From Deltaproteobacteria bacterium (GTDB lineage: Bacteria > Bdellovibrionota_B > Oligoflexia > Oligoflexales > Bog-1112), in the NCBI GenBank assembly GCA_020635195.1, contig JACKAG010000005.1:22559-86558 (forward strand): a DNA stretch of 64,000 nt, given 5' to 3'. Numbering within the stretch: position 1 is the first letter of the stretch; each line of letters starts with the position of its first letter. This document shows positions 5,065 to 36,672 of the stretch, one piece after another. The notes beneath the pieces are model-generated. The model worked only from the letters and a program-made list of their open reading frames with translations. It was not told the origin of the DNA and did not search any database. A program made the position numbers and the translations under genes.

Positions 5065-5081
5065 AGATAGAAATCCGGAAA

Positions 5082-6211: not shown

Positions 6212-6213
6212 AC

Positions 6214-6648
6214 GTGGCGTTTGCTTCCATCAGTCCCTCCGGACCAGATGATGACAACAAGGACCTTGCGGAGATCAACATCATTCCGCTGGTAGATATC
6301 ATGCTGGTGCTTCTCATCATCTTTATGGTTGCAGCCCCACTGTCCATCAGTGGAATTCATGTACAACTCCCCAGAAGTCAGGCAAAAGGCGGGCAGGTTG
6401 ATCAAAAGAAAATCATCCTCTCTATCGATGAAAAAGGGGATTATTTTATAGATAAAACCAGAATCCAACCAGAACATCTGGAGGCTAAAATAGAAGCCGT
6501 TTTTGCCGTTCGGGACGAAAAAGAGCTTTATATCAGAGCAGATAAAAATGTGTCCTATGGTCGGGTCGTTGATGCCATGACTGCCGCTAAACTCGCAGGA
6601 GTCCGGAAACTGTCTATGCTGACAACAGCACCTGCCAGCCCCCGCTGA
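6214..6648 (+). CDS. tolR: ExbD/TolR-family protein
   Basis: 144 aa with a GTG start 3 nt after the tolQ stop. It has a single TM helix 'INIIPLVDIMLVLLIIFMVAAP' and a periplasmic ExbD-like domain ('LYIRADKNVSYGRVVDAM'). Confidence 0.85.
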   Translation: MAFASISPSGPDDDNKDLAEINIIPLVDIMLVLLIIFMVAAPLSISGIHVQLPRSQAKGGQVDQKKIILSIDEKGDYFIDKTRIQPEHLEAKIEAVFAVRDEKELYIRADKNVSYGRVVDAMTAAKLAGVRKLSMLTTAPASPR

Positions 6649-6688
6649 GACTTCAGTGGCCTGACGTCTTATTTCAGGAGATATCGGT

Positions 6689-7546: not shown

Positions 7547-7602
7547 CCATCCTGTCATGAAACTCTGTCTGCCCACAAAGAAGAAAAAGGAGAATAGCAG
7601 AC

Positions 7603-14709: not shown

Positions 14710-16452
14710 TTAGCCGAGATCATCAATCATCTGATCCTGCTCTTCTCTGAGACGATCAGGAACAGAAACCCCAAAAGTTTCCAGGTAGGTCCTGACCTTA
14801 CTGATTTCATCCCTCCAGCCCTGCTTATCAATAGCACACAGCTCCTGCATATCCTCTTTACGCATATTAAGTCCATCTGTCGAAATAGCTCCTTCTGCGG
14901 GGAGCAGACCAATCGCAGATCGACAGGCTTCGGCCCGACCTTCTGCCCGATCAAGGACCCATCTCAGGACCCTGAGGTTTTCACCAAAACCAGGCCACAG
15001 ATATCGTCCATCAGCTCCCTGACGGAACCAGTTCACATGAAAGACCCTGGGAAGCTCAGAGCAGACACTTTCAAAGCTCAGCCAGTGCCTCCAGTAGTCG
15101 GCAAAGTTATAACCACAGAAAGGTTTCATGGCCATAGGGTCATGACGAAGAATACCAACTTTGCCGGTCGCCGCTGCTGTGGTTTCAGATGCAACAGAAG
15201 CTCCCATTAACACGCCATGCGCCCAGTTTTTTGATTCATAAACCAGAGGAATCAGTGACGGACGCCGCCCCCCGAAAACAATTGCAGAAATGGGGACTCC
15301 TTCCGGATTTTCCATTTCCCGGCTCCACGAGGGACACTGATGTGCAGCTACTGTAAATCTGGAATTAGGATGAGCGGCAGGTCCCTGACCTGGTGTATAA
15401 GGTCGCCCCTGCCAGTCCACAGCTGGGACCTCATCATCCTTACCTTCCCACCATGGCTGTCCATCCGCAGTCATAGCGACATTCGTAAAAATCGTATCCC
15501 GACTGAGCATATTCAGGGCATTCGGGTTGGTCTTCCGCGATGTTCCCGGAGCAACACCAAAAAACCCTGCTTCAGGGTTAATCGCCCATAAACGACCATC
15601 TTTACCGGGATGAAGCCATGCAATATCATCGCCAACAGTCCAGACTTTCCAGCCTTTATGACTTTCCGGAGGAATCAGCATCGCAAGATTTGTTTTTCCA
15701 CACTGGGAGGGAAAAGCAGCAGCAATATAGCGGACCTCTCCTTCAGGGTTTTCAATGCCAACAATCAGCATATGCTCAGCCAGCCACCCCTCCTGCAAAC
15801 CCTGATAACTGGCAATCCGCAGAGCATGGCATTTTTTCCCAAGAAGGGCATTCCCACCATAGCCAGAACCTATGCTGTTAATCATAAGCTCTTCCGGGAA
15901 GTGCATGATCAGCCGGTGCTCTTCTTTCAGATCTCCGGTCGAGTGCAGCCCTTTCACAAAAACACCATCTTCTGTGATTTTCTCAAGAGCCGCATCCCCC
16001 ATCCGGGTCATCAGCTTCATGTTCGCCACGACATAAGGGCTGTCGGTAATCTCAACCCCACAGCGGGCATAGGGGGAATCCAGAGGCCCCATGCAATAAG
16101 GCACCACATACATGGTCCGGCCCTGCATACAGCCGGAAAACAGTGCATCCGCTTTCTGATGTCCGTCAGAAGGATGCATCCAGTTATTGTTAGGACCTGC
16201 CGACTCCTGTTTTTCCGTACAAACGAAAGTCAGATGCTCCGTTCTGGCAACATCATTCGGATCTGAGCGGTGCAGGTAACAGCCCGGGTGCGTCGTCTGA
16301 TTCAGCTCCAGCAATGAGCCATCTGCCAGCATCAGCCGGATCAGATCCTGATACTCCTGCTCACTCCCCGTACACCAGTGAACAGAGGCCGCTTTAGTCA
16401 GCCTTGCGCTCTCCTCTACCCAGTCCTTTAGTTTCTGACATATTTTCATCAT
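14710..16452 (-). CDS. pckG: Phosphoenolpyruvate carboxykinase (GTP)
   Basis: It resembles GTP-type PEPCK throughout ('FPSQCGKTNLAML', 'VGDDIAWL', 'NWFR' near the C-terminus). I place the start at ATGATG 16447-16452 (MMKICQKL). The upstream extension to 16602 is rejected. Confidence 0.93.
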   Translation of the reverse strand: MMKICQKLKDWVEESARLTKAASVHWCTGSEQEYQDLIRLMLADGSLLELNQTTHPGCYLHRSDPNDVARTEHLTFVCTEKQESAGPNNNWMHPSDGHQKADALFSGCMQGRTMYVVPYCMGPLDSPYARCGVEITDSPYVVANMKLMTRMGDAALEKITEDGVFVKGLHSTGDLKEEHRLIMHFPEELMINSIGSGYGGNALLGKKCHALRIASYQGLQEGWLAEHMLIVGIENPEGEVRYIAAAFPSQCGKTNLAMLIPPESHKGWKVWTVGDDIAWLHPGKDGRLWAINPEAGFFGVAPGTSRKTNPNALNMLSRDTIFTNVAMTADGQPWWEGKDDEVPAVDWQGRPYTPGQGPAAHPNSRFTVAAHQCPSWSREMENPEGVPISAIVFGGRRPSLIPLVYESKNWAHGVLMGASVASETTAAATGKVGILRHDPMAMKPFCGYNFADYWRHWLSFESVCSELPRVFHVNWFRQGADGRYLWPGFGENLRVLRWVLDRAEGRAEACRSAIGLLPAEGAISTDGLNMRKEDMQELCAIDKQGWRDEISKVRTYLETFGVSVPDRLREEQDQMIDDLG

Positions 16453-16696
16453 CTGATGTCTCCCTACTCTGAATCGGTCATTCCGGATGCTCTTCTTATC
16501 ATCCCTGCTGACTGCCAAAGTCTCAAGACTTTTCAGAGGCAGTTCTGTAAGCCCGGATAGCCCAAAAGGGACTGAGTCGCCAGGATCATACTGCCTGGTC
16601 AACCAAAATCAAAGAATCGGCAACACGCTATAATGGACATCACCAGTCAGCAAGGGTCTTTCATCACGATAAAGAAAGGCATTTTCAAAGAAAAAC

Positions 16697-20310: not shown

Positions 20311-20859
20311 ATGGAAAAAATGATCTTTTTATCCCTGCTCCTTCTCTTTCCTGCCTGTAAACTCGCACTGAAGATACCGGAAATTAAAAGTGCAAAAACT
20401 GAACTCGAAGAACAGGTTCTTGGTTCCTGGCAGAAGATTGACCATGACCTGATTCTGATGTCCACAGTCAGAGGCGAAGGAAGCAGCTCCCGGAGCACCC
20501 ATCCTTATGAACAGGCAAAAAAGAACCGGGCGTTCAATCAGGATGATCTGGATGAATTACGGGACCAGCAAATCATCGGAGAAAGATATGACGGACACGT
20601 GGTCATCCTGGATCAGAGCATCACAGGAGTCATCCCCTCTGACGGATCACTTCAGAAACTGGCAAAGATCATTGTCGCAGAGGAAAACCGGGACCGTAAA
20701 ATCCTCTGGGAAAACGGAACCAGTGCATCACATGCCACAGGAGCTGCACAGGTGGACAGCAGCAGAAAAATCTGGACACAGGATCTGAGAAAGCACTTAA
20801 AAGCAGGAGTCTGGTATCAAAATGAAGCACAAAAGTGGGTCCGGAAAGCAGCTCCGTAA
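20311..20859 (+). CDS. YdbL-like (DUF1318) lipoprotein
   Basis: It has a lipobox 'LLFPAC'. Its C-terminus 'GVWYQNEAQKWVRK' resembles the E. coli YdbL C-terminus as I recall it ('GEYVQGINGKWVRK'). 'IGERYDGHVVIL' and 'IVAEENRDRKILWE' lie in the corresponding core positions. Confidence 0.6.
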   Translation: MEKMIFLSLLLLFPACKLALKIPEIKSAKTELEEQVLGSWQKIDHDLILMSTVRGEGSSSRSTHPYEQAKKNRAFNQDDLDELRDQQIIGERYDGHVVILDQSITGVIPSDGSLQKLAKIIVAEENRDRKILWENGTSASHATGAAQVDSSRKIWTQDLRKHLKAGVWYQNEAQKWVRKAAP

Positions 20860-23800
20860 TCGTGAATTCTTGCTGCTCCCAATACTCTTTCTGATCAGCT
20901 GCGCTTCCGGAGGACAACAGCCCCCGTCCGGAAATATAAGCGCAGAAAAAGAGCGTGTGTTTTTTACAGAACCAGGTCAGCTGACAGCAGGAACGGCTTT
21001 AACCTTTTCAGCAGATCTGTCTGCAAAAGGTGACTTCATTGTTTATACCTCCGACCGACAGGGAAACCTCGATATCTGGACCAAACGCAGCTCTGGCGGC
21101 TTCGCCCGGCCTCTGACCTGGCATGCCTCTGATGATAAAGGTCCGGCCATTTCTCCTGACGGAAAAAAGATTCTTTTTGTCTCGCGTCGCCTTGATGCTG
21201 CAGGGGACATTGTTCTGATGCCCATCCTTAAAGGGCGAAAATCAGAAGAAAACATCCAGGTCTTTCCCCATGAAGGTTATGAGGACTCTGATCCGGCCTG
21301 GTTTCCTGATGGTAAACGCTTTGTCTTTGTCGCAGGGCGCAACGGAAAAAAACCACAGCTGATGATTTCAGATACAGATTCCGGAGAGATCCAGGCTCTG
21401 GACGAGGCCCTGGGTGTACAACCTGCTGTCTTCCCGGACGGAGAGAGAATCATCTTTGTTGCTGACGGAGCTCTGAAAGTCTATCATTCTACGGAAAATC
21501 GCATTTCCCAGCTAACAGAAGGAGGCCTGGTACAGGATGCCTCACCTGCTTTCAGTGACGATGGCCGCTATATTGTTTTCACACGCTATGCAGATGATAC
21601 CAACCAGGATGGGCAGTTAAATGCAGACGATCATCCGACCATCTGGATCATGAGCACTGACAGACAAAATCCATCTCTTCCTCTGGAAAGCTTTCATATG
21701 ATGCCCCTGAGTTCGGCAAAATTTTCCAGCTGGAAACCCGTTGTGCGTCATCAGAAAGTCTGGTTTTCAAAGCAGACAGGATCAGCTATGAACCTGTTCT
21801 TCATACCATCCGACGGTCAGGCCAGCCCACCGGACAACCTGGAAGAGATGAAAGAAAAGCTGTCACTGCTCAGCCATGATGACGATAAAATATATTACCT
21901 TCGTCGCTCCGCCAGTGCTTTTTTTATAAAAGGCCGCCATGATGATGCAGGAGAAGCAGCTCTTTCAGAACTGATGTTTTATGCAAATCATGGCAAAGAG
22001 GCAGAAGCAGGGTGGTTACGAAAAAAAATACAGGCCGCTTTTCCTGATTTTACCTGGCTTCAGAGCCTGGCAGATCTTGTCATGCTCGAATTACGTCTGA
22101 ACGTGGCTCTGAAAAACGGGCGGCGACAACTGCCACAGATGCCTCCCTCATTCACTCCTCAGATTACAGAAACAGAGCCTGATCGGGTTCACTGCTACCA
22201 GCAGCTACTCAGGGGAAAAATTCTGACCGCTCATGACAGAATCTCTGAGGCCGCAGCATTGTTTGAAAGCATCTCTGATCACTGCTCCCGCCACACAGAG
22301 ATCCTGGCAGAAGCAAGCTTCCAGCGTGGTCGCCTGCTGGCACAGCTGAGCGGATCAGAATCCGCCATATCTGCCATGCTGCTGCTGACCCGGAATCTGC
22401 CCGGAGAAAAAAATGCTGTCACCAAAGCTGCGAGACTGGCCGTTCAGTTAACAGAGGAAAACAAACAGAATAAAATTGCAGCATTGCATCTTTTGAGAGA
22501 ACAAGCAAAGGGACTTCCTCTTTTGCCTGCGATGGCTCATCTGCGGATCGGGGAGCTTTTTGCCAGTCAGGGAAAAGAAATTGTCGCTGCAAACGAATAT
22601 CGGGTCATGATTGAGCAGTACCCGGAATCGCCAGAGGTTCTGCTACAGGCAGCGACTCAGCTCTCGTCCATCCTGCAACATAGCGGGCGTCTCAGAGAAG
22701 CTTCCGCAGTGATGCAAACCCTCTATCAACAGCTCCGGGAAAAAGGACCAGAATACCGGGAACAGGGAAGAAAACTCCTCAGAGATGTTCTGGGACGCAG
22801 GGGTTATCAGCTCCTCCTGGAACATGATAAAAAAGCAGCCCTGGAGAATTTTCGGCTTCTCCTCACGATTGATCCCGGCTCTTATGTTGCGGTGAAAGGC
22901 CTTTTGCGAATACAGAGTCAGGAGGCTGATCCGGAGGCAGACAAAAAGCGACTGGCAGCACTTTGCCTGCCTCCGGAGCCAACTCCGGCTCAGAGACTCT
23001 ATTTTGAAGGTCTTAAGAGCTCCTGGGATGTGTCAGAACATCTGAGCCCATCAGAAAATCTACAACGACTGGATGACAGCATCCTGAGTTTTGAGCAAGC
23101 CCGGGACCTGGATGATCAGGCTGCGGCCATTCATCAGGCTCTGGGGTGGGCATACCAGCAAAAGGCCTGGTGGATCAGGCAGGATGAAGAACGAGGGGGA
23201 ATGGCCTCTGTTCTGGGAGCCGGATGGAATCAGCTGCAACTGGGCTCCCTTGCAGAACTCAACTTCGATATCCGGGTTCTGAACCCCTTCCGGGAAGAAG
23301 ATCCCGACTGGCTCGAATCCGCAATCGACTCCTGGCTCGCTGCCGCAGCTCTTGCTCCTGAAGGGAGTCTGGAACAGGTTCAGATCAGTCAGAACCTTGC
23401 CAATGCTTATTATGAGAAAAACCTGTTTCAACAGGCTCTCCGCTACTTTGTCATGAGAATTCAGAATATCAGATCCGTTCCTGCCGAAAGCACGGCGTCC
23501 GAGGCTCTGTTATGGCAAAGAGCTGGCCGGACTGCATGGCAGGTGGAGGAGAATGACTTATCCATAAACTTTTTCAGAAGAAGCACAGCACTCTGGCAGC
23601 AGAGTGGACAGCAGGAGCAGCTATTAAAAACCCAGGATTCACTCGCTCTCAGCCTTCGCTCGGGAGGCTACATCCAGGAGGCGGCAAACCTCTATGAAGC
23701 CATGCTGACACTCCCTCCGGAAGAACTGATCCGGGAAAATCGGGTCCGGCTCCTCTTAAGTCTCAGCCAGTGCTATCAAAAAATGGAACAGAGGCAAAAG

Positions 23801-26800
23801 GCACTGGATACGCTGAACTCAGCAGAAGAACTCCTTAAAACACTGACAGAAAACCCCATCTGGCGCACTCAGCACCTGCTGGTCCTGGAAAGCGTCCGGG
23901 GCGACATCTGGAAAAAAAGCAGACAACGCTCCGGACAGATTCGCAGCATGGAGCAGAAGATTTTGCTGCTGCGATTCCTGCGAGACGACGGCATCAAACG
24001 TGAGGATAAAGAGGAGGCCTGGTACGCACAGGAACTCGCCTATGCCCTGAACCAGCTTGGATTTCTTCAGCTTGACGCAGGGCATTACCAGAAAGCAGCA
24101 GAACATTTTCAGGAGGCATCGGATTTTTCTGAACTCATGTACGAAGATCGCAGCAAAACCCCACCACCCGTCTGGCTTGCCAACCTTTTCAGTCTCGCAC
24201 GGGTCCAGCTGAAACGCTGGAAGGCTGGTGCTCTGCCTCAGAAGGAGCTGTCCCTGCTGAAAGAACGCCTCCGCAAAGAAAGTGCCCCATGGATCAGGAG
24301 CCTTTCTGAAGAAGCGACACAGGATATTCCATCTGCCCGGACAGCACAGCTCCCCAATGGACACAAGAATATCCCGGACTATATCCCGGAGCTCTTATCA
24401 CTCTATGGAATGGTTTTGTTAACATCTCCTGACAGTAGGCGAGAGGGAAGCCAGTCTCTGGCTATGTCATTTGAGATGGTTTCTGCCAGCTCCGGTAAAA
24501 AGCCACTTCCTCTTCTGGCAGAATCCTGGCTCAACTCTGATCCGACACCAGCAGCCAGAAACAGAAAACAAGCCTCTGCTTCTGCCCGGCAGCTCAGGAA
24601 GGGAATCACACGAAACCCTCTTATGATTCTGAAGTACCTCATTGCTGAGCAGCTCTGGGAGGATGCCTGGAGCAACGCAGAAACGCTTGTAGAGGCAGGA
24701 CTGACCCTGCCAGAGCCCACAGACCGGATGCTACTCCGGGATATCTACGAGGCCCGTGTTTCACCAGAAATGGCCACCGGTTTTTCCAGAGCATTTCAGG
24801 CATTTTCTGACTACCGGCGCCTGCGAGATAAAGAGCTCTTCAACCGGATTTTCCCATCGATTCAGCAGAAAGGTCCTCCCCAGGAATGGAAGAACCCCCT
24901 CTCAAAAGAAAAAACCGTAGAGGCACTGCGCTCCATCATGAATCCCGGGGATATGATGCTAAGCGCCCACTACTTTCGGAAGCAAAAGCAATGGCAGTTT
25001 TTATGGCTCTCCACAAAGGCAGAGGGAATTCATAGTTCTGCTGTCGTTCACTCAGAAGATGCCTCTGTCATCATCCGGCAACTTTCTTCCAGACTCGCAG
25101 CTCCCCTGAAAGAAATCCAGCGCCTTTATATCATCCCGTCAGATGAGGCATGGGACTTAGCCTGGGAAACCCTGGAAAGTCCCACTCATGATCTGCGCAT
25201 CAGCTATCTGCCATCATATGATGCCCTCCCCACAAGGGCAGAAAATCAGGCAAAGCCGGACCTGATGACCGTCAGTGATGATCCCTCATGGCTTCTCACA
25301 GCATCTGCTTCCTTCATGGCAGCTGCCAGACTACTCATCGCTGAGAGATCAGAAGAAGCCAGACTGCCTGGATTTCTTGCTCATATCAGCCATAGGTACC
25401 TGACTCAACAGCCCTTACAGCTGAAACGGCTGAACGGAACGGATCTTTCCTGGAGGCAGACACTTTATTCCTCTGCCAGCCTGAATCCGGATCAGATCAG
25501 ACAGATGGAGCTGCCCGAACTTTCGGAGATCATATTCACCCAGCTAGAAATCGATGATGACACAAGCCTGAGCCATGATCTTCCGGAGCACTGGCAGACT
25601 CTCTGGTACAGCTTCCATGCTGCAGGAGCGTCACGCGTTCTGATTCCCTGGACAAAAGAGAGAAAACAGCCTGTCCCTCATCTGAAATTGCCCACAGAAC
25701 TTGCCGGAAAGCTTTCCCCGGCATCTGTCCTTCAAAAGCATCAGCAAAAGGTGAGGATGATCGGACCGTTCTCCCCCTTAGCTTCCGGGGAAGAACAGAC
25801 AGAGAATGCGGAAGAACTCGCTGATATCGCTTTTGAAGAAGCGGAAGAAGCTGCATCAGCCGGAGACTATAACGCAGCAGCAAGACAATGGCTCAGATAT
25901 CTCTGGTACATCAGAAAAACAGAAGAAGAGACAGGAAGCGGCTACCGGGAAGGTCTTTCGAGACTGGCCATTAATTTCTACATGGCAGGATGGTACCAGG
26001 AAGCATTGCAGGTCCAGTCTCTGATCATCAGTCTGAACAAAAATGATCCGGATGCAGCTGATCCCGGAAGGACCGTGATGAACGCTGCAAACTTTGCGTT
26101 ACTGGCAGAAGAACACGATGATGCCACTCAGCTTTTAAAGAAAGCTGAGGTGATCTTTACAGAAGAGGATGATCAGGAGGCTCTGACGGAGCTGTGGAGA
26201 GTCCGGGGCATCCTCTATGACCGGACGGGAGACTATCCTGCCTCTGTCCGGGCCTATCTGAAATCCGCAGACTTCGCAGGAGAAGAAGGAGCCGCTGCGG
26301 CCTATCGTTCTGCCGGAAGCATCTATCAGCTGCGCCTTAATGAATTTGATAAAGCCCTGGATTATTTTCATCAGGCATCTGATCTTTACGCAAAAGATCA
26401 GAATATAAAGGATCTGATTACAGTATTAAGTGAAGAAGCGGCGACGTATATTTCTCTTGGGCAGGCCACACGGGCCCTTGCGATTCTTGAAGAAGCCCTG
26501 AAAAAAATTCCGGAAGAAGGGCAGCATGAGCTGCGTATCCGGATATTACAGGGGCTGGGAATTGCGGCCTTCCGGGCAGGCCGACTTAATCAGGTTCTGG
26601 AAATCCTCACAGAAGTCAACAGACTCATCGAAGCTCTTCCCGGGCAAAGTCAGAAAGACATTCTTATGAAATCTGGCTTTACGATCGATCGTATGAATTT
26701 GCAGGGAATGCTTGCTGCAAAGAATCAGAATTTTAAAGAAGCCTTCCGTTTGTTTTCTCAAGCCCTTAAAATGGCAAAACAGCATAAGATGTCCGCAAAA

Positions 26801-28678
26801 GAAGCCTTTCTTCTTAACAACTATGGTTTCTGGCTCAGGGAAAGCGGAGATGCCGGAAAATCTCTGGAATATTTCAGAAAGGCCTTTCATATCGATCGTC
26901 TGGCAAAGATCAGAAAAGATATGGCCTTCGATCTCAGAAATATGGGCCTAAGTGAACTGGTTCTTGATTACAGGAAAAATGCAGAAAATCACCTCAGAGA
27001 ATCCCTTGAAATCAGCCAGCAGATGGGAATCCTTTACAATCTGATTTATTGCCATTTTGGTCTTGGGGATTTATACCGGAAACAGAAACTCTATCCCAAA
27101 GCTCTTGAGCATTTCCGGAAAGCCGGAACACTTGCAACAGGAGCTGGCCTTGAGGATTTTATGTGGAAATCCCTTGCCGCAAGATCTCTGGTCGAGCGTG
27201 ATATGGGAGAAAAAGAAAAAGCAGTACATACGGCTATGAAAAGTATTGAATTGATTGAATCCCTGAGTCCTGGATTACAGTCCGGATCATCTGTTACAGG
27301 ACTTTCCTCCGAAAGAGGAGTTCAGGAAGTTTACGACGAACTTGTCTTCATGCTGGTGGAGAAAAAAGAATATGAGCTTGCTCTGGATATCAGCGAGCGG
27401 TCAAAAAAACGATTTTTAACGGACAGCCTTGGAGCAGGAAAACAGAGATTCGCACAGACAGAATCCTCTGTATTATTCTCAGAACTCAAAAATGATCTTG
27501 GAACCCTTCAGCTTCTGAATATCCGCAAAAGAAAAGAGCCAGAAGGGGCAGAACGAAAAAAAACAGAAGCTGCATTTGAGTCCTTAAAAAAGATGATTCA
27601 CAATAAAATGACCCAGCTCAGAAAAAGTGATCCACAAGCCTGGAAACTTTTCCGGGTCAGCAAAACAGATTTCCATCAGGTCAGACAGGCGTTGGCTCCC
27701 AACATGGCTCTGCTGAATTATCATATAACAAAAAATGCGATCTTTCTCTGGCTACTCAGAAAAGAAGGGATCACCTTCCGACGCATCGATACGAGTCGAC
27801 AGCAGCTGCACAAGATGCTCTCTGATTATCAAGAAATTATTGAGAACTATTCTGCAACAGGACAGCTGAGCCGTCAGTTAGGAGAGATTCTGATCGCTCC
27901 TGTTACAAAGGAATTATCCGGAATCCGGCTGATTGGCATGATTCCCCATGGCCCGTTACAGCAGTTATCATTTGCCAGCCTGACTCATCAGGGAGAATGG
28001 TTATCCTCTCAGGCTGGTTTATTTTATCTTGAGTTACTGGAAGACTTTCTGAAAGAAAAGGCAGCCCCATCGAGACTCATGAAGCAAAATGCCAAAATTT
28101 TTGCCATGGCAAACCCTGAAACAGAAGGTCTGTCTCAGATTTCTTTTGCTCAAAAAGAAGTGGAAGCTATCGCCAGAAGCTTTCCAAACACCACAATCTA
28201 TCATGGAAAACAGGCAAAGAAATCTATCCTTTTGCGGGAAGGGCACAGAGCTGATATTCTGCATCTTGCCGTGCATGGCCGTTTTTCCGGGACAGAGAGC
28301 AGGCAACATGCACTATATTTCTCAGGGAAAACAGATCCTTCAGCAAAACTCAGTCCATCTGAAATTTTCAGTTCCGGATTGAACCCTTATCTGGTGACAC
28401 TGTCTGCATGTGAGTCCGGCAAACAGGAGTCACAGGGAGCAGGTGGCTTTCTTAGTTTCTCCAGGGCTTTTTATTACAGTGGAGCCAGGATGCTTTTATC
28501 AGCTTTATGGCGTCTGGACGACATTTCAACAGCTGTGCTAATGAAGCGATTTTACCGAGAACTCTCACGAGGAACAGCTCCCTGGGAGGCTCTGAGCCGA
28601 GCACAGACTGTCGTCCGTCGATATTTTCCTCACCCTGCCTTCTGGGCCGCATTCAGGCTCAGCGGAGCATATCTCTGA
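20822..28678 (+). CDS. Giant lipoprotein: TolB-like PD40 repeats, an extended TPR-like repeat region and a C-terminal CHAT (caspase-fold) protease domain
   Basis: 2,618-aa uninterrupted ORF with a lipobox 'FLISC' (Cys codon 20900-20902). PD40 motifs include 'DFIVYTSDRQGNLDIW', 'PAISPDGKKILFVSRR', 'PAWFPDGKRFVFVAGR', 'PAVFPDGERIIFVA' and 'PAFSDDGRYIVFTR'. About 2,000 aa of helical-repeat sequence follow. The C-terminal CHAT signature has 'ILHLAVHGRF' (His codon 28274-28276) and 'LVTLSACESG' (Cys codon 28409-28411). It overlaps the upstream gene by 38 nt. Confidence 0.85.
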   Translation: MKHKSGSGKQLRNREFLLLPILFLISCASGGQQPPSGNISAEKERVFFTEPGQLTAGTALTFSADLSAKGDFIVYTSDRQGNLDIWTKRSSGGFARPLTWHASDDKGPAISPDGKKILFVSRRLDAAGDIVLMPILKGRKSEENIQVFPHEGYEDSDPAWFPDGKRFVFVAGRNGKKPQLMISDTDSGEIQALDEALGVQPAVFPDGERIIFVADGALKVYHSTENRISQLTEGGLVQDASPAFSDDGRYIVFTRYADDTNQDGQLNADDHPTIWIMSTDRQNPSLPLESFHMMPLSSAKFSSWKPVVRHQKVWFSKQTGSAMNLFFIPSDGQASPPDNLEEMKEKLSLLSHDDDKIYYLRRSASAFFIKGRHDDAGEAALSELMFYANHGKEAEAGWLRKKIQAAFPDFTWLQSLADLVMLELRLNVALKNGRRQLPQMPPSFTPQITETEPDRVHCYQQLLRGKILTAHDRISEAAALFESISDHCSRHTEILAEASFQRGRLLAQLSGSESAISAMLLLTRNLPGEKNAVTKAARLAVQLTEENKQNKIAALHLLREQAKGLPLLPAMAHLRIGELFASQGKEIVAANEYRVMIEQYPESPEVLLQAATQLSSILQHSGRLREASAVMQTLYQQLREKGPEYREQGRKLLRDVLGRRGYQLLLEHDKKAALENFRLLLTIDPGSYVAVKGLLRIQSQEADPEADKKRLAALCLPPEPTPAQRLYFEGLKSSWDVSEHLSPSENLQRLDDSILSFEQARDLDDQAAAIHQALGWAYQQKAWWIRQDEERGGMASVLGAGWNQLQLGSLAELNFDIRVLNPFREEDPDWLESAIDSWLAAAALAPEGSLEQVQISQNLANAYYEKNLFQQALRYFVMRIQNIRSVPAESTASEALLWQRAGRTAWQVEENDLSINFFRRSTALWQQSGQQEQLLKTQDSLALSLRSGGYIQEAANLYEAMLTLPPEELIRENRVRLLLSLSQCYQKMEQRQKALDTLNSAEELLKTLTENPIWRTQHLLVLESVRGDIWKKSRQRSGQIRSMEQKILLLRFLRDDGIKREDKEEAWYAQELAYALNQLGFLQLDAGHYQKAAEHFQEASDFSELMYEDRSKTPPPVWLANLFSLARVQLKRWKAGALPQKELSLLKERLRKESAPWIRSLSEEATQDIPSARTAQLPNGHKNIPDYIPELLSLYGMVLLTSPDSRREGSQSLAMSFEMVSASSGKKPLPLLAESWLNSDPTPAARNRKQASASARQLRKGITRNPLMILKYLIAEQLWEDAWSNAETLVEAGLTLPEPTDRMLLRDIYEARVSPEMATGFSRAFQAFSDYRRLRDKELFNRIFPSIQQKGPPQEWKNPLSKEKTVEALRSIMNPGDMMLSAHYFRKQKQWQFLWLSTKAEGIHSSAVVHSEDASVIIRQLSSRLAAPLKEIQRLYIIPSDEAWDLAWETLESPTHDLRISYLPSYDALPTRAENQAKPDLMTVSDDPSWLLTASASFMAAARLLIAERSEEARLPGFLAHISHRYLTQQPLQLKRLNGTDLSWRQTLYSSASLNPDQIRQMELPELSEIIFTQLEIDDDTSLSHDLPEHWQTLWYSFHAAGASRVLIPWTKERKQPVPHLKLPTELAGKLSPASVLQKHQQKVRMIGPFSPLASGEEQTENAEELADIAFEEAEEAASAGDYNAAARQWLRYLWYIRKTEEETGSGYREGLSRLAINFYMAGWYQEALQVQSLIISLNKNDPDAADPGRTVMNAANFALLAEEHDDATQLLKKAEVIFTEEDDQEALTELWRVRGILYDRTGDYPASVRAYLKSADFAGEEGAAAAYRSAGSIYQLRLNEFDKALDYFHQASDLYAKDQNIKDLITVLSEEAATYISLGQATRALAILEEALKKIPEEGQHELRIRILQGLGIAAFRAGRLNQVLEILTEVNRLIEALPGQSQKDILMKSGFTIDRMNLQGMLAAKNQNFKEAFRLFSQALKMAKQHKMSAKEAFLLNNYGFWLRESGDAGKSLEYFRKAFHIDRLAKIRKDMAFDLRNMGLSELVLDYRKNAENHLRESLEISQQMGILYNLIYCHFGLGDLYRKQKLYPKALEHFRKAGTLATGAGLEDFMWKSLAARSLVERDMGEKEKAVHTAMKSIELIESLSPGLQSGSSVTGLSSERGVQEVYDELVFMLVEKKEYELALDISERSKKRFLTDSLGAGKQRFAQTESSVLFSELKNDLGTLQLLNIRKRKEPEGAERKKTEAAFESLKKMIHNKMTQLRKSDPQAWKLFRVSKTDFHQVRQALAPNMALLNYHITKNAIFLWLLRKEGITFRRIDTSRQQLHKMLSDYQEIIENYSATGQLSRQLGEILIAPVTKELSGIRLIGMIPHGPLQQLSFASLTHQGEWLSSQAGLFYLELLEDFLKEKAAPSRLMKQNAKIFAMANPETEGLSQISFAQKEVEAIARSFPNTTIYHGKQAKKSILLREGHRADILHLAVHGRFSGTESRQHALYFSGKTDPSAKLSPSEIFSSGLNPYLVTLSACESGKQESQGAGGFLSFSRAFYYSGARMLLSALWRLDDISTAVLMKRFYRELSRGTAPWEALSRAQTVVRRYFPHPAFWAAFRLSGAYL

Positions 28679-29000: not shown

Positions 29001-29375
29001 ATGAAAAGTTTAGCCTTGGTTTTGCCTCTCTTTTTCTACAGTAGTCTGGCTCCCGGAGCAGAACAGAAAATGGATGATCCACTGGGGATTATGGCATTTT
29101 TATTCAAAGACACTGCATGGAAAGCATGCATCCCCACCATCCGGACGTCGTCTGACAAACTTCCTAAGCCAGAAACAGAACAAGAAATAGATGACCCGCT
29201 GGGGATTATGGCATTTTTATTCAAAGATACTGCCTGGAAAGCATGCATCCCTGCCATCCAGGCAACAGCATCACAGTTGAGTGACAAGAAGAGCTCTGAT
29301 GAAAGGGCGAAAAGGGATGTGAGCAAAACCAAAAATCATAAAACAGTCCGTTTCTTGTTACCCCCCTCCGCTTAG
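29001..29375 (+). CDS. Small secreted protein with an internally duplicated Cys-containing module
   Basis: 124 aa with signal peptide 'MKSLALVLPLFFYSSLAPGA'. The module 'DDPLGIMAFLFKDTAWKACIP' occurs twice. AAGG lies 9 nt upstream of the ATG. I recognise no family. Confidence 0.6.
   Translation: MKSLALVLPLFFYSSLAPGAEQKMDDPLGIMAFLFKDTAWKACIPTIRTSSDKLPKPETEQEIDDPLGIMAFLFKDTAWKACIPAIQATASQLSDKKSSDERAKRDVSKTKNHKTVRFLLPPSA
29073..29252 (+). repeat. Two copies of a 63-nt (21-codon) module, offset by 117 nt
   Basis: Copies at 29073-29135 and 29190-29252 encode the identical peptide DDPLGIMAFLFKDTAWKACIP with only synonymous differences. Similarity extends a few codons on each side (EQKM/EQEI and T-I-R/A-I-Q). 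Confidence 0.95.
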
Positions 29376-29523: not shown

Positions 29524-31395
29524 GTGCCAGGTCAGGCTAATATCATAAGCCATGAGGATCAGGCATTGGCGGATAGCTACGAAGAAATCATCAGGCAAAC
29601 CTTTTTAGAAGAAGCCGAGCAAAGCCTTGCCGATATCGAGCAATGTATCATCGAAATTGACCGCTATTCGTCCAGAAAAAAGATTTATCCGTCCGAGATA
29701 TCATCAAACTTCGCAAATCTTTTCCGTCTGGTCCATAATCTAAAAGGATCTTCCGCAGGCGTGGGCTTTTCGAAAGTCTCAGACTTAAGCCATATCCTGG
29801 AAACATTTTTAACCACGATCAAAAACGAAAATTTTCAGATTTCAGGAGAAACATGCGACTTTATCCTTGAATGTAATGATTTTTTTCGAAAAATGATCGT
29901 AAAAATTTCACAAAATCCGGATAGTCAGTTTGATCTGAAATATTTTGATAACAAAGCAGAGCAACAATTAAGCTCTATGAAGACGAATATTCCAAGCGAT
30001 AACAAAACAGAACAAAAGAAAGAACCTGTCGCAGAAATTACAGAACAGAAGAAAGAACCTGTCGCAGAAATTACAGAACAGAAGAAAGAATCTGTCACAG
30101 AGATTGCAGAACAGAAAAAAGAACCTGTCACAGAGATTTATAATGACAACAAATTATCCGGAGAACAGACCGTCATGACTGAGCCATCCTCAAGCACCGC
30201 CCCTGTTCAGGAACGTGAACAACTCACGAAAGATGAGAGTATTCGCGTCAGAATGTATCAGATCGAGCAGCTGAATAATTATGTGGGTGAAATGGTCGTC
30301 ATGCAAACCGTTCTGAATCAGCAAAAAACAGAATTAAATCAGGAGCTGCTTTCAAAAGTCATTCCCCAGATGGATAAAACGGTGAAAGAAATTCAGAACC
30401 TTTCTCTCGGCCTTCGCATGATTCCCATCAGTCAGCTTTTTACAAAAATCCAGAGGGTCTGCCGGGATACCAGCAGAGCTGTCGGAAAAGAGGTGGAATT
30501 AACGCTCGAAGGAGAACAGACTGAAGTTGACAAAACCATTATTGAAAAAATCAGTGATCCTTTAGTCCATATGGTCCGGAATTCCATTGATCATGGGCTC
30601 GAATCAAAAGAAGAACGCCTCAGAATTGGAAAAGAACCGATCGGACATGTCACGCTCAGATGCTATCACGATGGCGGTCATGTCATCATTGAAGTCTCTG
30701 ATGACGGCGCAGGACTTAATAAAAAGTTAATTGAAGAAAAAGCCATCAAAAATAAACTGATCCCCGAAAACCACAACCTGAGAGAAGATGATATTCTTAA
30801 CCTGATCTTCCATGGTGGTTTTTCGACCAAAGATACAGCTACAGATGTCTCAGGCAGGGGGGTCGGAATGGATGTCGTTCTCACAAACATCCAGTCTCTT
30901 TCCGGAGAAATCGATATCGCGACCCATCCCGGAAAAGGCAGCACATTTAAAATATCCGTGCCTCTCTCTCTGGCTGTCATCGATGGTGTTGTTGCCAATG
31001 TAAACACAAACCGATATATTCTTCCGATGTCCCAGGTTTTTGAATCCGTCAAAATATCTCCTGAAGATCTTGATAAAGCTTCAGGTGTCGGAACTATTTT
31101 TAACCTGCGCGGGAAAAATATTCCGGTCATATTTGCCCATGAAATTCTGAGTGAAAAATCCTCCTCAAAAGAATTTTATACTGCTGTTATTATAAGAAAA
31201 CATGGTTTTGAACCCTATGCCGTACTGGTGGATGAAATTCTTAAACAACAGCAGATTGTTGTCAAACCCATTTCAAAAGCACTTAAATTTACACGATCTT
31301 TGATTGGTACGGCTATTCTCGGGGACGGGCTTCCTGCTTTTATCATCGATCTTTTTGATGTGAGTCAATATGTCAAAGGTTTAGCAAAGAGTTGA
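29524..31395 (+). CDS. cheA: Chemotaxis histidine kinase CheA
   Basis: It has an HPt domain ('LFRLVHNLKGSSAGVGF'), a dimerisation/HATPase region ('LVHMVRNSIDHGLE', 'DDGAGLN', 'GRGVGMDVV') and a C-terminal CheW-like domain. The alternative start at TTG 29566 has the better RBS. Confidence 0.92.
   Translation: MPGQANIISHEDQALADSYEEIIRQTFLEEAEQSLADIEQCIIEIDRYSSRKKIYPSEISSNFANLFRLVHNLKGSSAGVGFSKVSDLSHILETFLTTIKNENFQISGETCDFILECNDFFRKMIVKISQNPDSQFDLKYFDNKAEQQLSSMKTNIPSDNKTEQKKEPVAEITEQKKEPVAEITEQKKESVTEIAEQKKEPVTEIYNDNKLSGEQTVMTEPSSSTAPVQEREQLTKDESIRVRMYQIEQLNNYVGEMVVMQTVLNQQKTELNQELLSKVIPQMDKTVKEIQNLSLGLRMIPISQLFTKIQRVCRDTSRAVGKEVELTLEGEQTEVDKTIIEKISDPLVHMVRNSIDHGLESKEERLRIGKEPIGHVTLRCYHDGGHVIIEVSDDGAGLNKKLIEEKAIKNKLIPENHNLREDDILNLIFHGGFSTKDTATDVSGRGVGMDVVLTNIQSLSGEIDIATHPGKGSTFKISVPLSLAVIDGVVANVNTNRYILPMSQVFESVKISPEDLDKASGVGTIFNLRGKNIPVIFAHEILSEKSSSKEFYTAVIIRKHGFEPYAVLVDEILKQQQIVVKPISKALKFTRSLIGTAILGDGLPAFIIDLFDVSQYVKGLAKS
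30007..30138 (+). repeat. 4 x 33-nt in-frame tandem repeat in the cheA linker
   Basis: It encodes TEQKKEPVAEI / TEQKKEPVAEI / TEQKKESVTEI / AEQKKEPVTEI. The units are at 30007, 30040, 30073 and 30106. Confidence 0.95.
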
Positions 31396-31397
31396 AT

Positions 31398-31886
31398 ATG
31401 ATTGAATCTTCAAAAACAACAGACACAAAGTCAGAAGACCGCTTTCTGGAATTCATGATCAGGGATGAGTTTTTTGGAATTCCCCTGCTAGAAATCAGAG
31501 AAGTGATCGGCGTCCCGAAAACAATACCGATACCAGGAGCCCCATCCTGGTATCAGGGAATTATGAATTTACGTGGACAGGTCATCCCTATTATAGACCT
31601 CGGGCTCAAACTGGGATCAGGTCATACAGAAAAAACAAATGAAACTGCTGTCATCATCGTTGAATGCACCTCCGTAACCATCGGAATCATCGTCGATGCA
31701 GTCAAAAAAGTCATCACAGCAACTGAAAAAACAATACAGAAAAACCAGAGTCAGAATACAAAAAAAGATCTGAAAATTGATGGTGTTTTCAGAAATGGAG
31801 AACAGATGACTCTGATTCTTAACATTGAGAAATCATTAAATCTGGACGATATCGTTAACGCTACTCCTGGTAGCACTTTAATATAG
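31398..31886 (+). CDS. cheW: Chemotaxis coupling protein CheW
   Basis: It is a CheW-like domain ('[21 protein letters not shown]', '[15 protein letters not shown]', 'VIIVE ... IGIIVDAV'). ATG 31398 lies 3 nt after the cheA stop. The ORF-track TTG at 31392 lacks a spaced RBS. Confidence 0.9.
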
Positions 31887-31899
31887 GAATGGGACTGCG

Positions 31900-34380
31900 A
31901 TGAGTTTTAAAATCAGTAATTTAAGTTTAAGAGTTAAGTTAATTGCGCTCTTCATTCTGACATCTTTGCTGCCGATTTCGGTATCGAGCTGGATCACATG
32001 GAGCAACAATACCTCAACACTGTTAGAAGAAACAGAAAACAACTTAAAGACTTTCCTTGAAATAAAAGGGAAAAGTCTCGAAGATGCCATTCAGACGATG
32101 CGAAGTCAGGTAAAAACACTTGCAAAAAACAGAACCACTGTTGAAGCTATGGCAAATTTTTCTGAAGCATTCAATAAATACCCAGATGAAATATCTAATA
32201 AACCAAGCCGGGAAGATATTCTTCAATCGCTGACATCATATTATCAGAGCGAATTTGGCAATGAATTTAAGAACCGAAACGGCGGAATTTCAACAGATAG
32301 TCTTGTTAATCTGGCACAGTTAAAAGATCCTTCTCTCTACCTACAATATAGCTATATTTCTGAAAATAAAAATCCACTTGGATCAAAAGATACACTTAAG
32401 TTTTCTCCTGATGGTTCCAGCTGGAGCAACTTTCATAAAGAATACCACTCAACTTTTGTTAATTTTCTTTATGAATTTGGATATTATGATGTTTTTCTTA
32501 TCGAACCTGAAAATGCAACCATCGTCTATACTGTATTTAAAGAACTTGATTTTGCAACCTCATTAAAAAATGGTCCTTATTCTAATACAAAATTTGCTGA
32601 AATTGCAAAAGCTGCATTAAATGCAACATCTGATAATTCATTTATCACGGATCTTGAAACCTATTACCCTTCATACAATGATCCTGCCGGATTTATCGGA
32701 GCACCTATTATTAAAGATGGAAAAACAATAGGAGCTCTGGTTTTCCAGATACCTGTAGCCAAGCTTGATGCTATACTCACCAGTGACAAAAAGTGGAAAG
32801 ATGTCGGAGGAGGAGAGACCGGAGAAACCTATATCCTTGGAAAAGATCAATATATGAGGAGCACATCCCGTCTTCTGATCGAAAACAAAGAGGATTATTT
32901 TTCAAAAATTGAAAAAGATTCTTTCCCCGAAGAACGATTAAACTACATAAAAGCAAAAGGCACAACAACTCTGATGCAACGTGTTAATTCCGAATCCGCT
33001 CAGAAAGCAATTTCTGGTAAAAGTGGTTTTACATCAGCCATCAACTACCTGGGAAATTCTGTTCTGAGTGCATACAGACCTTTAAACATCAAAGGTGTTG
33101 ACTGGTTTATTATCTCAGAAATGACAGAAGAAGAAGCCCTGATCCCGGTTTCAAATCTGACACGTCTCTTACTTATCGTTAATCTTGCTGCAATCATCAT
33201 TATTGCCTTAATTTCATTTATTTTCGCAACAACAATGACAAAAAACATTGTCCGGTCAGTTTCAGGGCTTGACCGATCTGCAACAGAAACCCTGACCAGT
33301 AGTTCTAATGTCCGCTCCGCGTCCGCCGTGGTTTCCTCTTCAGTCACCGAGCAGGCATCTGCCATTCAGGAAACGGTCTCAACATTGAATGAGATCAGGG
33401 CCATGAGCCAGAAAAGTTTAGAATTCTCTGAAAAATCATCAGAAAAAGCAGACTCCTCTATGAGAATCGCAAAGGAAGGTGAACAGGTCGTAGCAGAGAT
33501 GGAACAGTCTATGGCGGATATCTCAGACAGCAACGATAAAATCATGCAAGCTGTTTCAGACAGCAATAAAGAAATTCAGAGCATTGTTGAAGTTATCAAC
33601 AGCATTGCAGAAAAAACAAATGTTATCAACGACATTGTTTTTCAGACCAAACTTCTCTCATTTAATGCCTCTGTCGAAGCCGCAAGAGCTGGCGAACACG
33701 GAAAGGGCTTTGCTGTCGTCGCTGAAGAGGTCGGTAATCTTGCTCAGATGAGTGGTAACGCAGCCAAAGAAATCAGCGAAATGTTAAATGACAGCGTCAA
33801 AAAAGTAGAGAGCATTGTAACAAACACATCCAGTCAGGTCGCAGGACTTATCGAAGTCGGAACCTCCAAGGTATCGAGAGGAACTGAAATTGCAAACCGT
33901 TGCAGGGAAGTTCTGTCAAATGTTGTCTCGGATATTTCGAATGTCACAACCATGATGAGCGAAATCAACAGTGGTGCCAGAGAGATCTCTGAGGGTGTTT
34001 CCAATATCTCTACCGCAATGAATCAGCTGGACAAGTCGACCCATGCAAATTCTGATATATCTCATAAAACATCTGGCTATGCGAAGAGTCTTGCCGATCA
34101 GGCGAACCATCTTGCTGACATTGTCTACCAACTCAGAAAAGTTGTATTAGGAAAAAGCAGTGAATCTGACAGAAAGGATGTGAGAAGCGGACAAAAAGAG
34201 GAAGAAGATATCGCAAATTCAGCAGATCTGAACGAACGAAAGCGCTCTGCAAGAAGCCCGCAAAGAGACTATAATCCGGTCGTTCCCATCAAAGAGGACA
34301 GGAAGGACAAAATTGGAGGCATTGGCGAGTCCTCTGTCATCCCAAGTGCTTCCGATGATGGTTTCAAAGAAGTCAGCTAA
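31900..34380 (+). CDS. Methyl-accepting chemotaxis protein with a periplasmic double-Cache-like sensor
   Basis: It has two TM segments flanking a ~370-aa periplasmic region ('[17 protein letters not shown]', typical of dCache). These are followed by the MCP signalling domain ('[31 protein letters not shown]'). Confidence 0.9.
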
Positions 34381-34389
34381 AAGAGAGCT

Positions 34390-36672
34390 ATGAATCAGAC
34401 ATATTCTCAGGATTCATTTCTGAGTTTTATTGAAAATATTTTTACAAGTTCGACTGGCATCACATTTGATCATGACCAGCGAAACATTATTTTATTAAAA
34501 ATCGAAAAACACATCAGAAGTCTCGGGCTACCCTCTTTTCAGGAATATGAAAAATATTTCCTGAAACATCCGGAACAGGAAAAAGAATCCCTTATTTCTA
34601 TCCTGACTGTTCACCATACTTCTTTTTTCAGAAATATCAGTCATTTCAACTACATCGAACAGAACATCCACGACATGGTACGCGCCATTATGAAATCAGG
34701 CCGATCTGAACTCTCTGTCTGGTCCTCTGCATGTAGCTTTGGGCACGAAGTGTATTCTCTCGCTCTGCTTCTGGATTACCACCTTCGCAGATACCATGAT
34801 ACGTTCACCTTTCGGATACTGGGATCTGATGTCGATACACTCAGTCTGAAAATCGCTCAAAATGGCGTTTACCGTACCGTTCAGGCAGAAAAAATACCAG
34901 GACAATATCATCAGAATCATATTATCTATGGAACAGGAAATGCTAAAGGCTATATAAAGATATCAGATAAACTAAAGAGAAAATGTCATTTTAAAAAACA
35001 TAATCTGATTTCAGATTCAATGCATGATATGTTTGATCTGATATTTTGCAGAAATGTACTGATTTATTTCTCCGAATCCATGCAGCAGGAAGCCATCTCA
35101 AAAATGGCGAAAAATCTATATCCAAATGGCATAATTATTCTTGGCTCTTCAGAATCACTGTTTAAATATCCGGATATGCTCGAATCCATCGGGGATTCCA
35201 AATATAAAATAAGGGACAACAAAACAAAATCATTAAACGAACATGAGCACAAAAAAAATCCAAACGTGTATAAGCTGATATCCGGATCTCAGCCATCATC
35301 TTTCATCAATCAGGACACCAGTTATATTGCTGTCCTGTGCAAACATAAAGAAAGAATGCTTTTATTCAGAGTGCATGATATCCCTTCTGTTTCATACGAC
35401 ATAAAAAAAGCGATCAAAAATCATTCTTTTGAAAACTACTCCGTCAGATATATCGCTCTGGAGCGTGAAGAAAAAGAACTCCGTAAAAAACTGCTTCTGT
35501 CTTTCGATCAGACCACAGGAGTGAGCGTCAACAGACGATTTGACCTTAATGTCTCAGGACGAATCTTTCGCACCCATTCTCTTATCCAGGAAAACAATCA
35601 GATAAAACAAAATATAAAAGAAAAACAAGAGATCATAACAACAACACAAGAAAGAAAAATAAGAGTCCTCGTGGTCGATGATTCAAAAACCAATCAGCTC
35701 ATTATGAAAAAACTGCTTCCTGAAATGCCAGGGATCGAATGGGTTGGAGAGGTGCTTGATCCGAGAGACTTTTCCAGAATATCTCAGGAATTAAAGCCTG
35801 ATGTCATCACACTCGACATGAACATGCCCCACATGAATGGATGTGATATTTTACGCCAGATGAAACAGTCCGTATGGATACCGGCAATTATTGTCAGTTC
35901 ACTTGGGATGGAAGAAGGCTCTGCCGTCTTTGAAGCCCTGGAACTTGGGGCATTCGATTATATTCAGAAACCTGAGAAAGAAAACCTGGTCAGTTTTTCC
36001 AGGCTCCTTGAAGAAAAAATACGCTTTGCAAGTCAGCATAACCGCAGAAGCAAAAAGCAACACAACACAACACAATTATCCCGGACAAAAATCGACCTGA
36101 AAAAAATCATCGCGATCGGATCATCAACTGGTGGCCCAACTGCACTCAAAGAACTTCTGAGCTCTTTGACAGGCGAGATTCCCCCCATTGTCATTGTCCA
36201 GCATATCCCGCCAGAATTCTCAAGAGTTCTTGCAGAACGCTTCAATCACCTCTTCCCTTTTACCGTCCGGGAAGCCACAGACGGCGATGTCCTGGCAGCT
36301 AACAACGTTTATATAGCCCCCGGGGGAAGGCAAATGTATGTGACCTGCGGGACGAGTGGAAAGATTTTTTTAAAAGTAAAGCATGATCCACCTTATGGCG
36401 GATTCTGTCCTTCCGTTGACGTTCTGTTCAGCTCAGTCGCAGACTGCCTTGGAAAAAAAGCTGTCGGTATCCTGCTGACAGGCATGGGTAGTGATGGAGC
36501 AGAGGGAATGGCTAAAATGAAAAGAAAGGGTGCCCTGACCATTGCCCAAAGCGAAGAAAGCTGTGTCGTCTTCGGCATGCCAAAGGCGGCAATAGCACTA
36601 GGGGCTGCTGACAAAGTCTGTGATATAAGCGATATCATCCCCACAATATCAAAACTTCAGTCCGGCAGCTAA
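34390..36672 (+). CDS. Fusion protein: CheR methyltransferase, an unassigned ~150-aa region, a receiver domain and the CheB methylesterase
   Basis: The N-terminal half is CheR-like ('SVWSSACSFGHEVYSLALLL', 'DLIFCRNVLIYF'). Residues ~423-545 are a REC domain ('IRVLVVDDS', 'VITLDMNMPHMNG'). The C-terminal part is CheB-like with a Ser/His/Asp context ('AIGSSTGGPTAL', 'IVQHIPPEFS', 'LTGMGSDGA'). It is a single uninterrupted 760-aa ORF. Confidence 0.88.
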   Translation: MNQTYSQDSFLSFIENIFTSSTGITFDHDQRNIILLKIEKHIRSLGLPSFQEYEKYFLKHPEQEKESLISILTVHHTSFFRNISHFNYIEQNIHDMVRAIMKSGRSELSVWSSACSFGHEVYSLALLLDYHLRRYHDTFTFRILGSDVDTLSLKIAQNGVYRTVQAEKIPGQYHQNHIIYGTGNAKGYIKISDKLKRKCHFKKHNLISDSMHDMFDLIFCRNVLIYFSESMQQEAISKMAKNLYPNGIIILGSSESLFKYPDMLESIGDSKYKIRDNKTKSLNEHEHKKNPNVYKLISGSQPSSFINQDTSYIAVLCKHKERMLLFRVHDIPSVSYDIKKAIKNHSFENYSVRYIALEREEKELRKKLLLSFDQTTGVSVNRRFDLNVSGRIFRTHSLIQENNQIKQNIKEKQEIITTTQERKIRVLVVDDSKTNQLIMKKLLPEMPGIEWVGEVLDPRDFSRISQELKPDVITLDMNMPHMNGCDILRQMKQSVWIPAIIVSSLGMEEGSAVFEALELGAFDYIQKPEKENLVSFSRLLEEKIRFASQHNRRSKKQHNTTQLSRTKIDLKKIIAIGSSTGGPTALKELLSSLTGEIPPIVIVQHIPPEFSRVLAERFNHLFPFTVREATDGDVLAANNVYIAPGGRQMYVTCGTSGKIFLKVKHDPPYGGFCPSVDVLFSSVADCLGKKAVGILLTGMGSDGAEGMAKMKRKGALTIAQSEESCVVFGMPKAAIALGAADKVCDISDIIPTISKLQSGS

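Follow-up and report, generated by a model that had tools for sequence, protein, structure and literature searches.

A giant predicted lipoprotein with tandem TPR-CHAT units, encoded with AsmA-like and YdbL-like partners in an Oligoflexales genome

The giant gene and its domains

A stretch of 64,000 nucleotides from a Deltaproteobacteria bacterium of the order Oligoflexales (assembly GCA_020635195.1, contig JACKAG010000005.1, positions 22,559 to 86,558; the window) carries on its forward strand a giant gene, P0001 (20822-28678), whose reading frame is open and intact and encodes 2,618 amino acids (aa). P0001 is the last gene of a three-gene operon, P0002-P0003-P0001, and is translationally coupled. 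The first gene of this cassette, P0002 (16697-20284, forward strand), encodes a protein of 1,195 aa with an N-terminal anchor and an AsmA-like, repeating-beta-groove (RBG) body according to AF2 and Foldseek. The second, P0003 (20311-20859, forward strand), encodes a predicted lipoprotein of 182 aa whose C-terminal YdbL/DUF1318 domain was identified by Pfam and by comparison with YdbL; the 3' 38 nucleotides of the gene overlap the start of P0001. A promoter and terminator scan of the operon returned sites no more frequently than in shuffled sequences. From the reading frame, the Pfam content (PD40, several TPR families and CHAT) and a family search, P0001 is predicted to be a giant PD40-TPR-pseudoCHAT-TPR-CHAT lipoprotein.

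Position 20822 is the earliest possible start after the upstream stop, and a Shine-Dalgarno-like AGGAG can be read from the sequence of the same strand at 20805-20809, 12 nucleotides before the ATG. The next in-frame start is the TTG of codon 17; its use would delete the charged n-region of the leader, and the retention of the leader in relatives argues against it. The lipoprotein signal peptide was assigned to residues 1-27 (20822-20902, forward strand) by a pattern check, with the lipobox L-I-S-C and Ala at position +2. The N-terminus, MKHKSGSGKQLRNREFLLLPILFLISC, conforms, by pattern and by hand, to the PROSITE PS51257-type rule, which combines a lipobox pattern, a Cys within residues 15-35 and a Lys or Arg among the first seven residues. 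K2 and K4 lie in the n-region, the uncharged LLLPIL is followed by F-L-I-S-C, and Cys27 is encoded at 20900-20902, the codon already named in a preliminary description of this locus.

No internal transmembrane-like segment was found in P0001 (the top 19-aa hydropathy window reaches 1.41), so the whole mature chain, CHAT included, would lie beyond the inner membrane. Hydrophobic N-terminal leaders are present in 60 of the 61 full-length family members, which indicates that export is a conserved family trait, and lipoboxes in 12 of them, including the nearest relatives of P0001. The rule-conforming leader, the lack of an internal membrane segment and the leaders of the relatives together uphold the earlier prediction that P0001 is exported as a lipoprotein. 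In this organism the protein is probably lipid-anchored to the outer membrane, although under the E. coli sorting rule the Ala at +2 gives no more than a hint of this. P0001 has 7 Cys in 2,618 aa, the family median is also 7, and the sole Cys of the CHAT domain is the catalytic one; such a Cys-poor family fits an oxidising compartment.

The signal is followed by a PD40 beta-propeller of six blades (residues ~45-335; 20954-21826, forward strand). Pfam PD40 matches four stretches above threshold within residues ~50-270 (E 2e-28). Six blades can be discerned by eye in residues ~60-330, with a clear PD40 motif in five, so that the earlier count of at least five motifs was fair. Sequence matches of residues 27-360 in the PDB are propellers of TolB and of S9 peptidases, with TolB chains among the best. 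The likeness to TolB of the Tol-Pal system consists in a periplasmic six-bladed PD40 propeller. The earlier comparison of this module with TolB therefore stands for the propeller, which is of a generic PD40 kind, and fails for functional homology. P0001 lacks the TolB N-terminal domain, and the TolB equivalog model TIGR02800 gives it 86.4 bits against a cut-off of 343, aligning at model positions 280-390 (the propeller part) only. A full-length TolB is encoded elsewhere in the window, at 7603-9021; it covers positions 7-418 of the 418 of TIGR02800 at 281 bits, itself below the cut-off of 343. TolB identity of the N-terminal module was thus rejected. The Tol cluster (4952-9021) also comprises TolQ (4952-6211), called with ~170 surplus N-terminal residues, and a TolA/TonB-like gene (6689-7546).

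At the other end of P0001, a CHAT protease domain predicted to be active (27866-28666, forward strand) is matched by Pfam PF12770 over residues 2349-2615 at 171.6 bits against a cut-off of 24 (E 3.3e-50; profile positions 3-288 of 289). The motif HLAVHGRF contains His2485 (codon 28274-28276) and LSACESG contains Cys2530 (codon 28409-28411); the preliminary description had placed both codons correctly, and the dyad is intact. In the family alignment His2485 and Cys2530 are invariant in 61 of 61 full-length members and Gly2486 is kept in 57. In P0001 the dyad stands in H2485-G2486 and A2529-C2530. The strict invariance of the dyad and of its flanking motifs across several phyla, whose members share ~20-30% identity overall, speaks for selected catalysis. 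The C-terminal sequence by itself found no match in the PDB. The family profile of the domain matches solved chains of Csx29, also called TPR-CHAT (E 2e-7), and its HG and AC motifs align to H585 and C627, the catalytic residues of Csx29 (PMC9729208). Homology to solved Csx29 thus supports a predicted caspase-like fold with a juxtaposed dyad, and the domain is probably catalytically active.

Profile-profile comparison and a predicted fold add a second CHAT-like domain, which the preliminary description had not recorded. Residues ~1353-1643 (24878-25750, forward strand) have no Pfam match and are colinear with the C-terminal CHAT in hhalign (probability 99.6%, E 4e-24 with 30 sequences; 99.7%, E 2e-26 with 61). 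The AF2 model of residues 1300-1715 has a predicted local distance difference test score (pLDDT) of 72, and its top 13 Foldseek matches are Csx29/TPR-CHAT chains (probability 1.00, E 1.5e-6 to 3e-4). The catalytic His and Cys are missing from this region both in P0001 and in the family consensus. It is therefore described here as a predicted pseudo-CHAT, a second and catalytically dead copy that has lost the dyad, the live copy being residues ~2250-2618, which keep it. No third CHAT-like domain was found in P0001 by hhalign with the 61 sequences.

TPR-type regions precede both copies. Array 2 (residues ~1700-2150; 25919-27271, forward strand) is matched by Pfam TPR_12, TPR_2, TPR_1 and TPR_MalT. 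Helical, TPR-like region 1 (residues ~336-1300; 21827-24721, forward strand) has a weak YbgF-type TPR match and is homologous to array 2 in hhalign (probability 99.7%, E 3e-26), a result of lesser weight because repeat arrays match one another easily. With the pseudo-CHAT in place, P0001 is best described as a signal, a PD40 propeller, a TPR-pseudoCHAT unit and a TPR-CHAT unit, i.e., as a tandem (TPR-CHAT)x2.

Operon partners, relatives and conservation of the cassette

The AF2 model of P0002 (pLDDT 77.7) has a helix at residues 19-42, followed by ~45 long beta-strands. Its best Foldseek match is the N-terminal fragment of Vps13 (6cbc, probability 1.00), the prototype of the repeating-beta-groove lipid-transfer fold. 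P0002 itself has no Pfam match, its orthologues have sub-threshold matches to DUF748, AsmA and YhdP, and there is a match to the LIC_11026 family (E 2e-11). The predicted fold and these weak Pfam hints support an inner-membrane-anchored RBG (AsmA-like) protein.

P0003 scores 34 bits with Pfam PF07027 (DUF1318; cut-off 27), a cut-off that 9 of 10 orthologues also exceed. With mature E. coli YdbL it shares 31% identity across 100 aa (E 1e-8). The lipobox Cys and an N-terminal extension of ~55 aa are conserved in the family alignment. The mature start, C-T-x-x-(I/V)-(D/E)-V, suggested a YnbE-YdbL fusion. This idea was not supported: the BLAST match of the P0003 N-terminus to YnbE covers 8 residues (E 0.065), and PF13617 was found in 0 of 10 orthologues.

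How phospholipids travel to the outer membrane is a question in which AsmA-like bridge proteins play a central part; to our knowledge few of their partners outside E. coli have been described. In E. coli three proteins, the AsmA-like YdbH, the lipoprotein YnbE and the periplasmic YdbL, build and adjust a bridge between the two membranes that has been implicated in moving phospholipids (PMC11126948). YdbL binds the C-terminal helix of YnbE, and free YdbL is degraded by the periplasmic protease DegP (bioRxiv 10.64898/2026.03.16.712125), which offers a parallel to a cassette that links the YdbL-like P0003 with a protease. Both systems have an inner-membrane beta-groove protein followed by a DUF1318/YdbL protein in an operon, with the periplasm as the site of action. 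In contrast to the E. coli system, the P0001 cassette has no YnbE, its YdbL-like protein is a lipoprotein with the extra segment of ~55 aa, its large protein has no detectable sequence similarity to YdbH, and a giant protease gene is added. The two partners, which were not used in the preliminary description, are the best clue to the function of P0001, and the linkage of AsmA-like, YdbL-like and giant protease genes provides a concrete hypothesis in envelope biogenesis. All the components (CHAT, PD40, TPR, RBG/AsmA-like, YdbL) belong to known kinds. The literature yielded no published account of the P0001 family, nor of the pseudo-CHAT or the link with the AsmA-like/YdbL-like pair, and no paper joining CHAT with PD40, AsmA-like proteins or two-partner secretion. 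Of the few that do mention a CHAT domain alongside periplasm, lipoprotein or signal peptide, none relates to this family.

Relatives of P0001 were sought among 5.8 billion proteins with a word-based search. Full-length relatives are 28-41% identical and remoter ones ~20%, all having ~2,500-2,800 aa and identical Pfam content. In a species-level scan, with one genome per species and loci confirmed by tblastn, at least 438 loci of the family were confirmed. P0001 is thus a member of a widespread family and not a singular oddity. Holders include metagenome-assembled genomes (MAGs) of Oligoflexales/Bdellovibrionota (the best match, 33% identity), many Nitrospinota, Geobacter, Geomonas, Citrifermentans, Desulfobacterales including Desulfonema magnum, and others. 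Database names of the members are generic, e.g., 'CHAT domain-containing protein'. The protein search also returned other exported TPR-CHAT architectures (P0014, P0017, P0025 and P0026), all with leaders, so that predicted export of CHAT proteases is recurrent in sequence databases; no paper on exported CHAT proteases was found in the literature. The presence of the family in culturable Geobacter and Geomonas, and of a CHAT-less form in the saprophyte Leptospira terpstrae, brings it within reach of cultured organisms.

Conservation of the cassette was followed in the fetched loci of the 61 full-length giants. A DUF1318 gene lies directly upstream of the giant in 34 of them, overlapping or abutting its start in 32, and the gene for the ~1,200-aa protein is also present in 31 of the 34, the exceptions being mostly contig ends. 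These loci span Oligoflexales, Bdellovibrionota, proteobacterial MAGs, Desulfuromonadales, Desulfobacterales, Humidesulfovibrio and a Chromatiaceae MAG. Within the order of the window the giant was found in 25 of 81 genomes (16 of the 56 of good quality). The 25 giant-bearing genomes are also those with the 25 best P0002-like matches, and in 24 of them the two genes are neighbours on a single contig. Weaker, partial P0002-like matches occur in 26 giant-less genomes, from which it appears that the giant needs the pair and not the reverse.

Lineage-specific variations were seen around the giant. In Geomonas/Geobacter loci (L047, 17001-18411; L046, 18488-19935) it is followed by two secreted proteins of ~170-190 and 290 aa, alike at their N-termini, possibly an addition to the cassette that is peculiar to this lineage. 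In two Nitrospinaceae loci (L066, 17963-18904; L073, 17924-18865) a 313-aa reading frame lies on the opposite strand right after the giant and bears a weak resemblance to the N-terminal portion of the P0002 family (E ~1e-6); in another locus (L091) a 422-aa reading frame precedes a stand-alone DUF1318 gene. Nitrospinaceae may thus hold short AsmA-like partners.

Proposed function and its alternatives

On these sequence-based grounds, P0001 is rather likely to be an envelope-resident, TPR-gated CHAT cysteine endopeptidase that works on or with an intermembrane-bridge module. The analysis shows its domain content, the conserved dyad, the signal sequences and the linkage of the genes; its localisation, catalytic activity, gating and substrate are inferred. 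The earlier suggestion that it senses or cleaves envelope components is plausible. The dead CHAT copy would probably serve as a structural partner of the live one, as does the pseudo-protease domain of separase, and the TPR arrays and propeller would probably form a platform for ligand or substrate that gates the protease, as the TPR does in Csx29. P0001 would most likely act in the periplasm, on or with the AsmA-like/YdbL-like bridge module, and the first candidate substrates would be the YdbL-like lipoprotein P0003 and the disordered loops of the AsmA-like P0002.

Eukaryotic separase, whose relationship to CHAT has been described (PMC9729208), is likewise very large and built of helical repeats, with a caspase-like protease at its C-terminus and an inactive protease-like domain. 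It differs in being eukaryotic, cytoplasmic/nuclear and securin-regulated. The pseudo and active domains of separase are adjacent, whereas ~600 residues of TPR separate the two copies in P0001. The dead/live duplication within one chain is structurally of interest for the regulation of caspase-fold enzymes. Presentation of envelope substrates to a periplasmic protease by an outer-membrane TPR lipoprotein is known from systems of the NlpI-Prc type. There, two partners and a serine protease of family S41 are involved, while P0001 would have TPR and a cysteine-type CHAT in one chain.

Several observations weigh against the proposal. Most family members have ordinary signal peptides instead of lipoboxes, so membrane anchoring is no family constant, and the patchy occurrence within the order (16 of 56 good genomes) indicates that the giant is no core factor of envelope biogenesis. 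In Nitrospinota, Desulfonema magnum and one Myxococcota MAG the giant stands apart from the pair; its linkage is therefore frequent and not obligatory. The genomes with stand-alone giants have a long-form DUF1318 gene elsewhere, and in D. magnum and the Myxococcota MAG this gene adjoins a P0002-like gene. As to P0002, the TM-scores of its Foldseek matches are low, its orthologues give nothing above the Pfam cut-offs, no AsmA-clan family (AsmA, DUF748, YhdP, TamB, YdbH) exceeds its cut-off for P0002 itself, and sequence homology to E. coli YdbH was not supported (hhalign probability 2.6%). Finally, Leptospira terpstrae (L095, 4377-15944, AOGW02000008.1) has the identical three-gene order, with a P0002-like protein of 1,010 aa (E 8e-21), a DUF1318-like protein of 195 aa (E 2e-20) and a PD40/TPR giant of 2,647 aa in whose C-terminus no CHAT signature was detected. 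The cassette may accordingly work without proteolysis. NCBI names for cluster members include 'biopolymer transporter TolR', an apparent misannotation.

The Leptospira cassette, which keeps a giant of the same size, is among the points in favour of a scaffold. P0001 would then be a non-catalytic periplasmic TPR/propeller protein, e.g., a dock on the outer-membrane side for the AsmA-like bridge that replaces YnbE, and CHAT would be structural or serve self-processing only. One CHAT copy of P0001 is already dead, and YnbE (PF13617) was found in none of five cassette genomes that have the YdbL-like gene, the E. coli and Caulobacter controls being positive. This explanation is nevertheless unlikely, since the dyad and flanking motifs are retained at such low identity as to argue for selected catalysis, and since most members are not lipoproteins, so that a YnbE-like outer-membrane anchor would not be a general role.

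A more far-reaching version of the protease proposal is offered tentatively, with the chances against it but somewhat above those of a scaffold. The cassette would be an undescribed bridge system, in which an AsmA-like protein and a lipid-anchored YdbL-like chaperone, with no YnbE, are controlled by a giant periplasmic caspase-like protease, and in which the tandem dead and live CHAT domains form an intramolecular caspase 'dimer'. If true, regulated proteolysis would switch a lipid-transport bridge on or off.

The closest relatives of P0001 belong to Bdellovibrionota/Oligoflexales MAGs, and clan CD caspase-fold proteases such as the gingipains are secreted. These facts, together with the lipoprotein signal with Ala at +2, would suit a surface or released protease acting on external proteins in nutrition, predation or host interaction, the AsmA-like partner helping it to be exported or assembled, in the way that TamB serves some surface proteins. 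Such a role is very improbable: the family is found equally in non-predatory Geobacter/Geomonas, Nitrospinota and Desulfobacterales, the cassette includes no conserved gene for an outer-membrane barrel, a type IX secretion system or a two-partner secretion partner, and TPR gating fits specific, regulated cleavage better than bulk digestion.

Genomic neighbourhood and comparison with CHAT-based immunity

The bacterial CHAT proteases that have been characterised act in immunity as ligand-gated effectors (PMC9729208). They are cytoplasmic, and a conserved, exported and TPR-gated one would carry caspase-like signalling into the periplasm. Csx29 of the type III-E Craspase (PDB 8d9f, 7x8a, 7y9x) resembles P0001 in having a TPR array followed by a CHAT protease, in the alignment of the His-Gly and Ala-Cys motifs, in being the best fold match of the mid-domain and, likely, in gating by a TPR ligand. 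Csx29 is cytoplasmic, has ~700 aa and is bound to Cas7-11/crRNA, whereas P0001 is predicted to be exported, has 2,618 aa, a PD40 propeller and a duplicated TPR-CHAT with a dead copy, and lies in no CRISPR context. The signal peptide of P0001 and its neighbours (PEPCK, AsmA-like, YdbL-like and che genes) set it apart from a type III-E Craspase component.

The immune precedent, the resemblance of the pseudo-CHAT model to Csx29 structures and the patchy distribution within the order (25 of 81 genomes) would agree with an envelope sensor for conflict or defence, in which the TPR/propeller part detects an invader or damage and CHAT triggers suicide or repair, like the cytoplasmic CHAT proteins of CRISPR type III-E and gasdermin systems. 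Against this explanation, which is quite unlikely, though less so than the surface protease, PADLOC returned generic TPR alone and no defence-specific match for the locus, so that membership of a defence system was rejected. The conserved partners are moreover of the envelope-biogenesis type and not toxins, gasdermins or nucleases, and the other neighbours, PEPCK and a che operon, are housekeeping genes. The former, a GTP-type phosphoenolpyruvate carboxykinase (PEPCK) encoded at 14710-16602 on the reverse strand, is divergent from the cassette, and its synteny with it is kept in three related MAG loci (L002, L003 and L007; 67-71% protein identity), by which the source organism is placed close to Oligoflexales/Bdellovibrionota MAGs.

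The stretch that separates the giant gene from the che operon contains, at 29001-29375, a gene whose 124-aa product has a signal peptide and includes DDPLGIMAFLFKDTAWKACIP twice in identical form. This protein was considered as a conserved partner or substrate of P0001 and rejected, no homologue being found in any related locus. The chemosensory cluster that follows (29524-36672) encodes CheA, CheW and a methyl-accepting chemotaxis protein with a dCache domain, and a 760-aa protein of this cluster unites CheR, a receiver domain and CheB.

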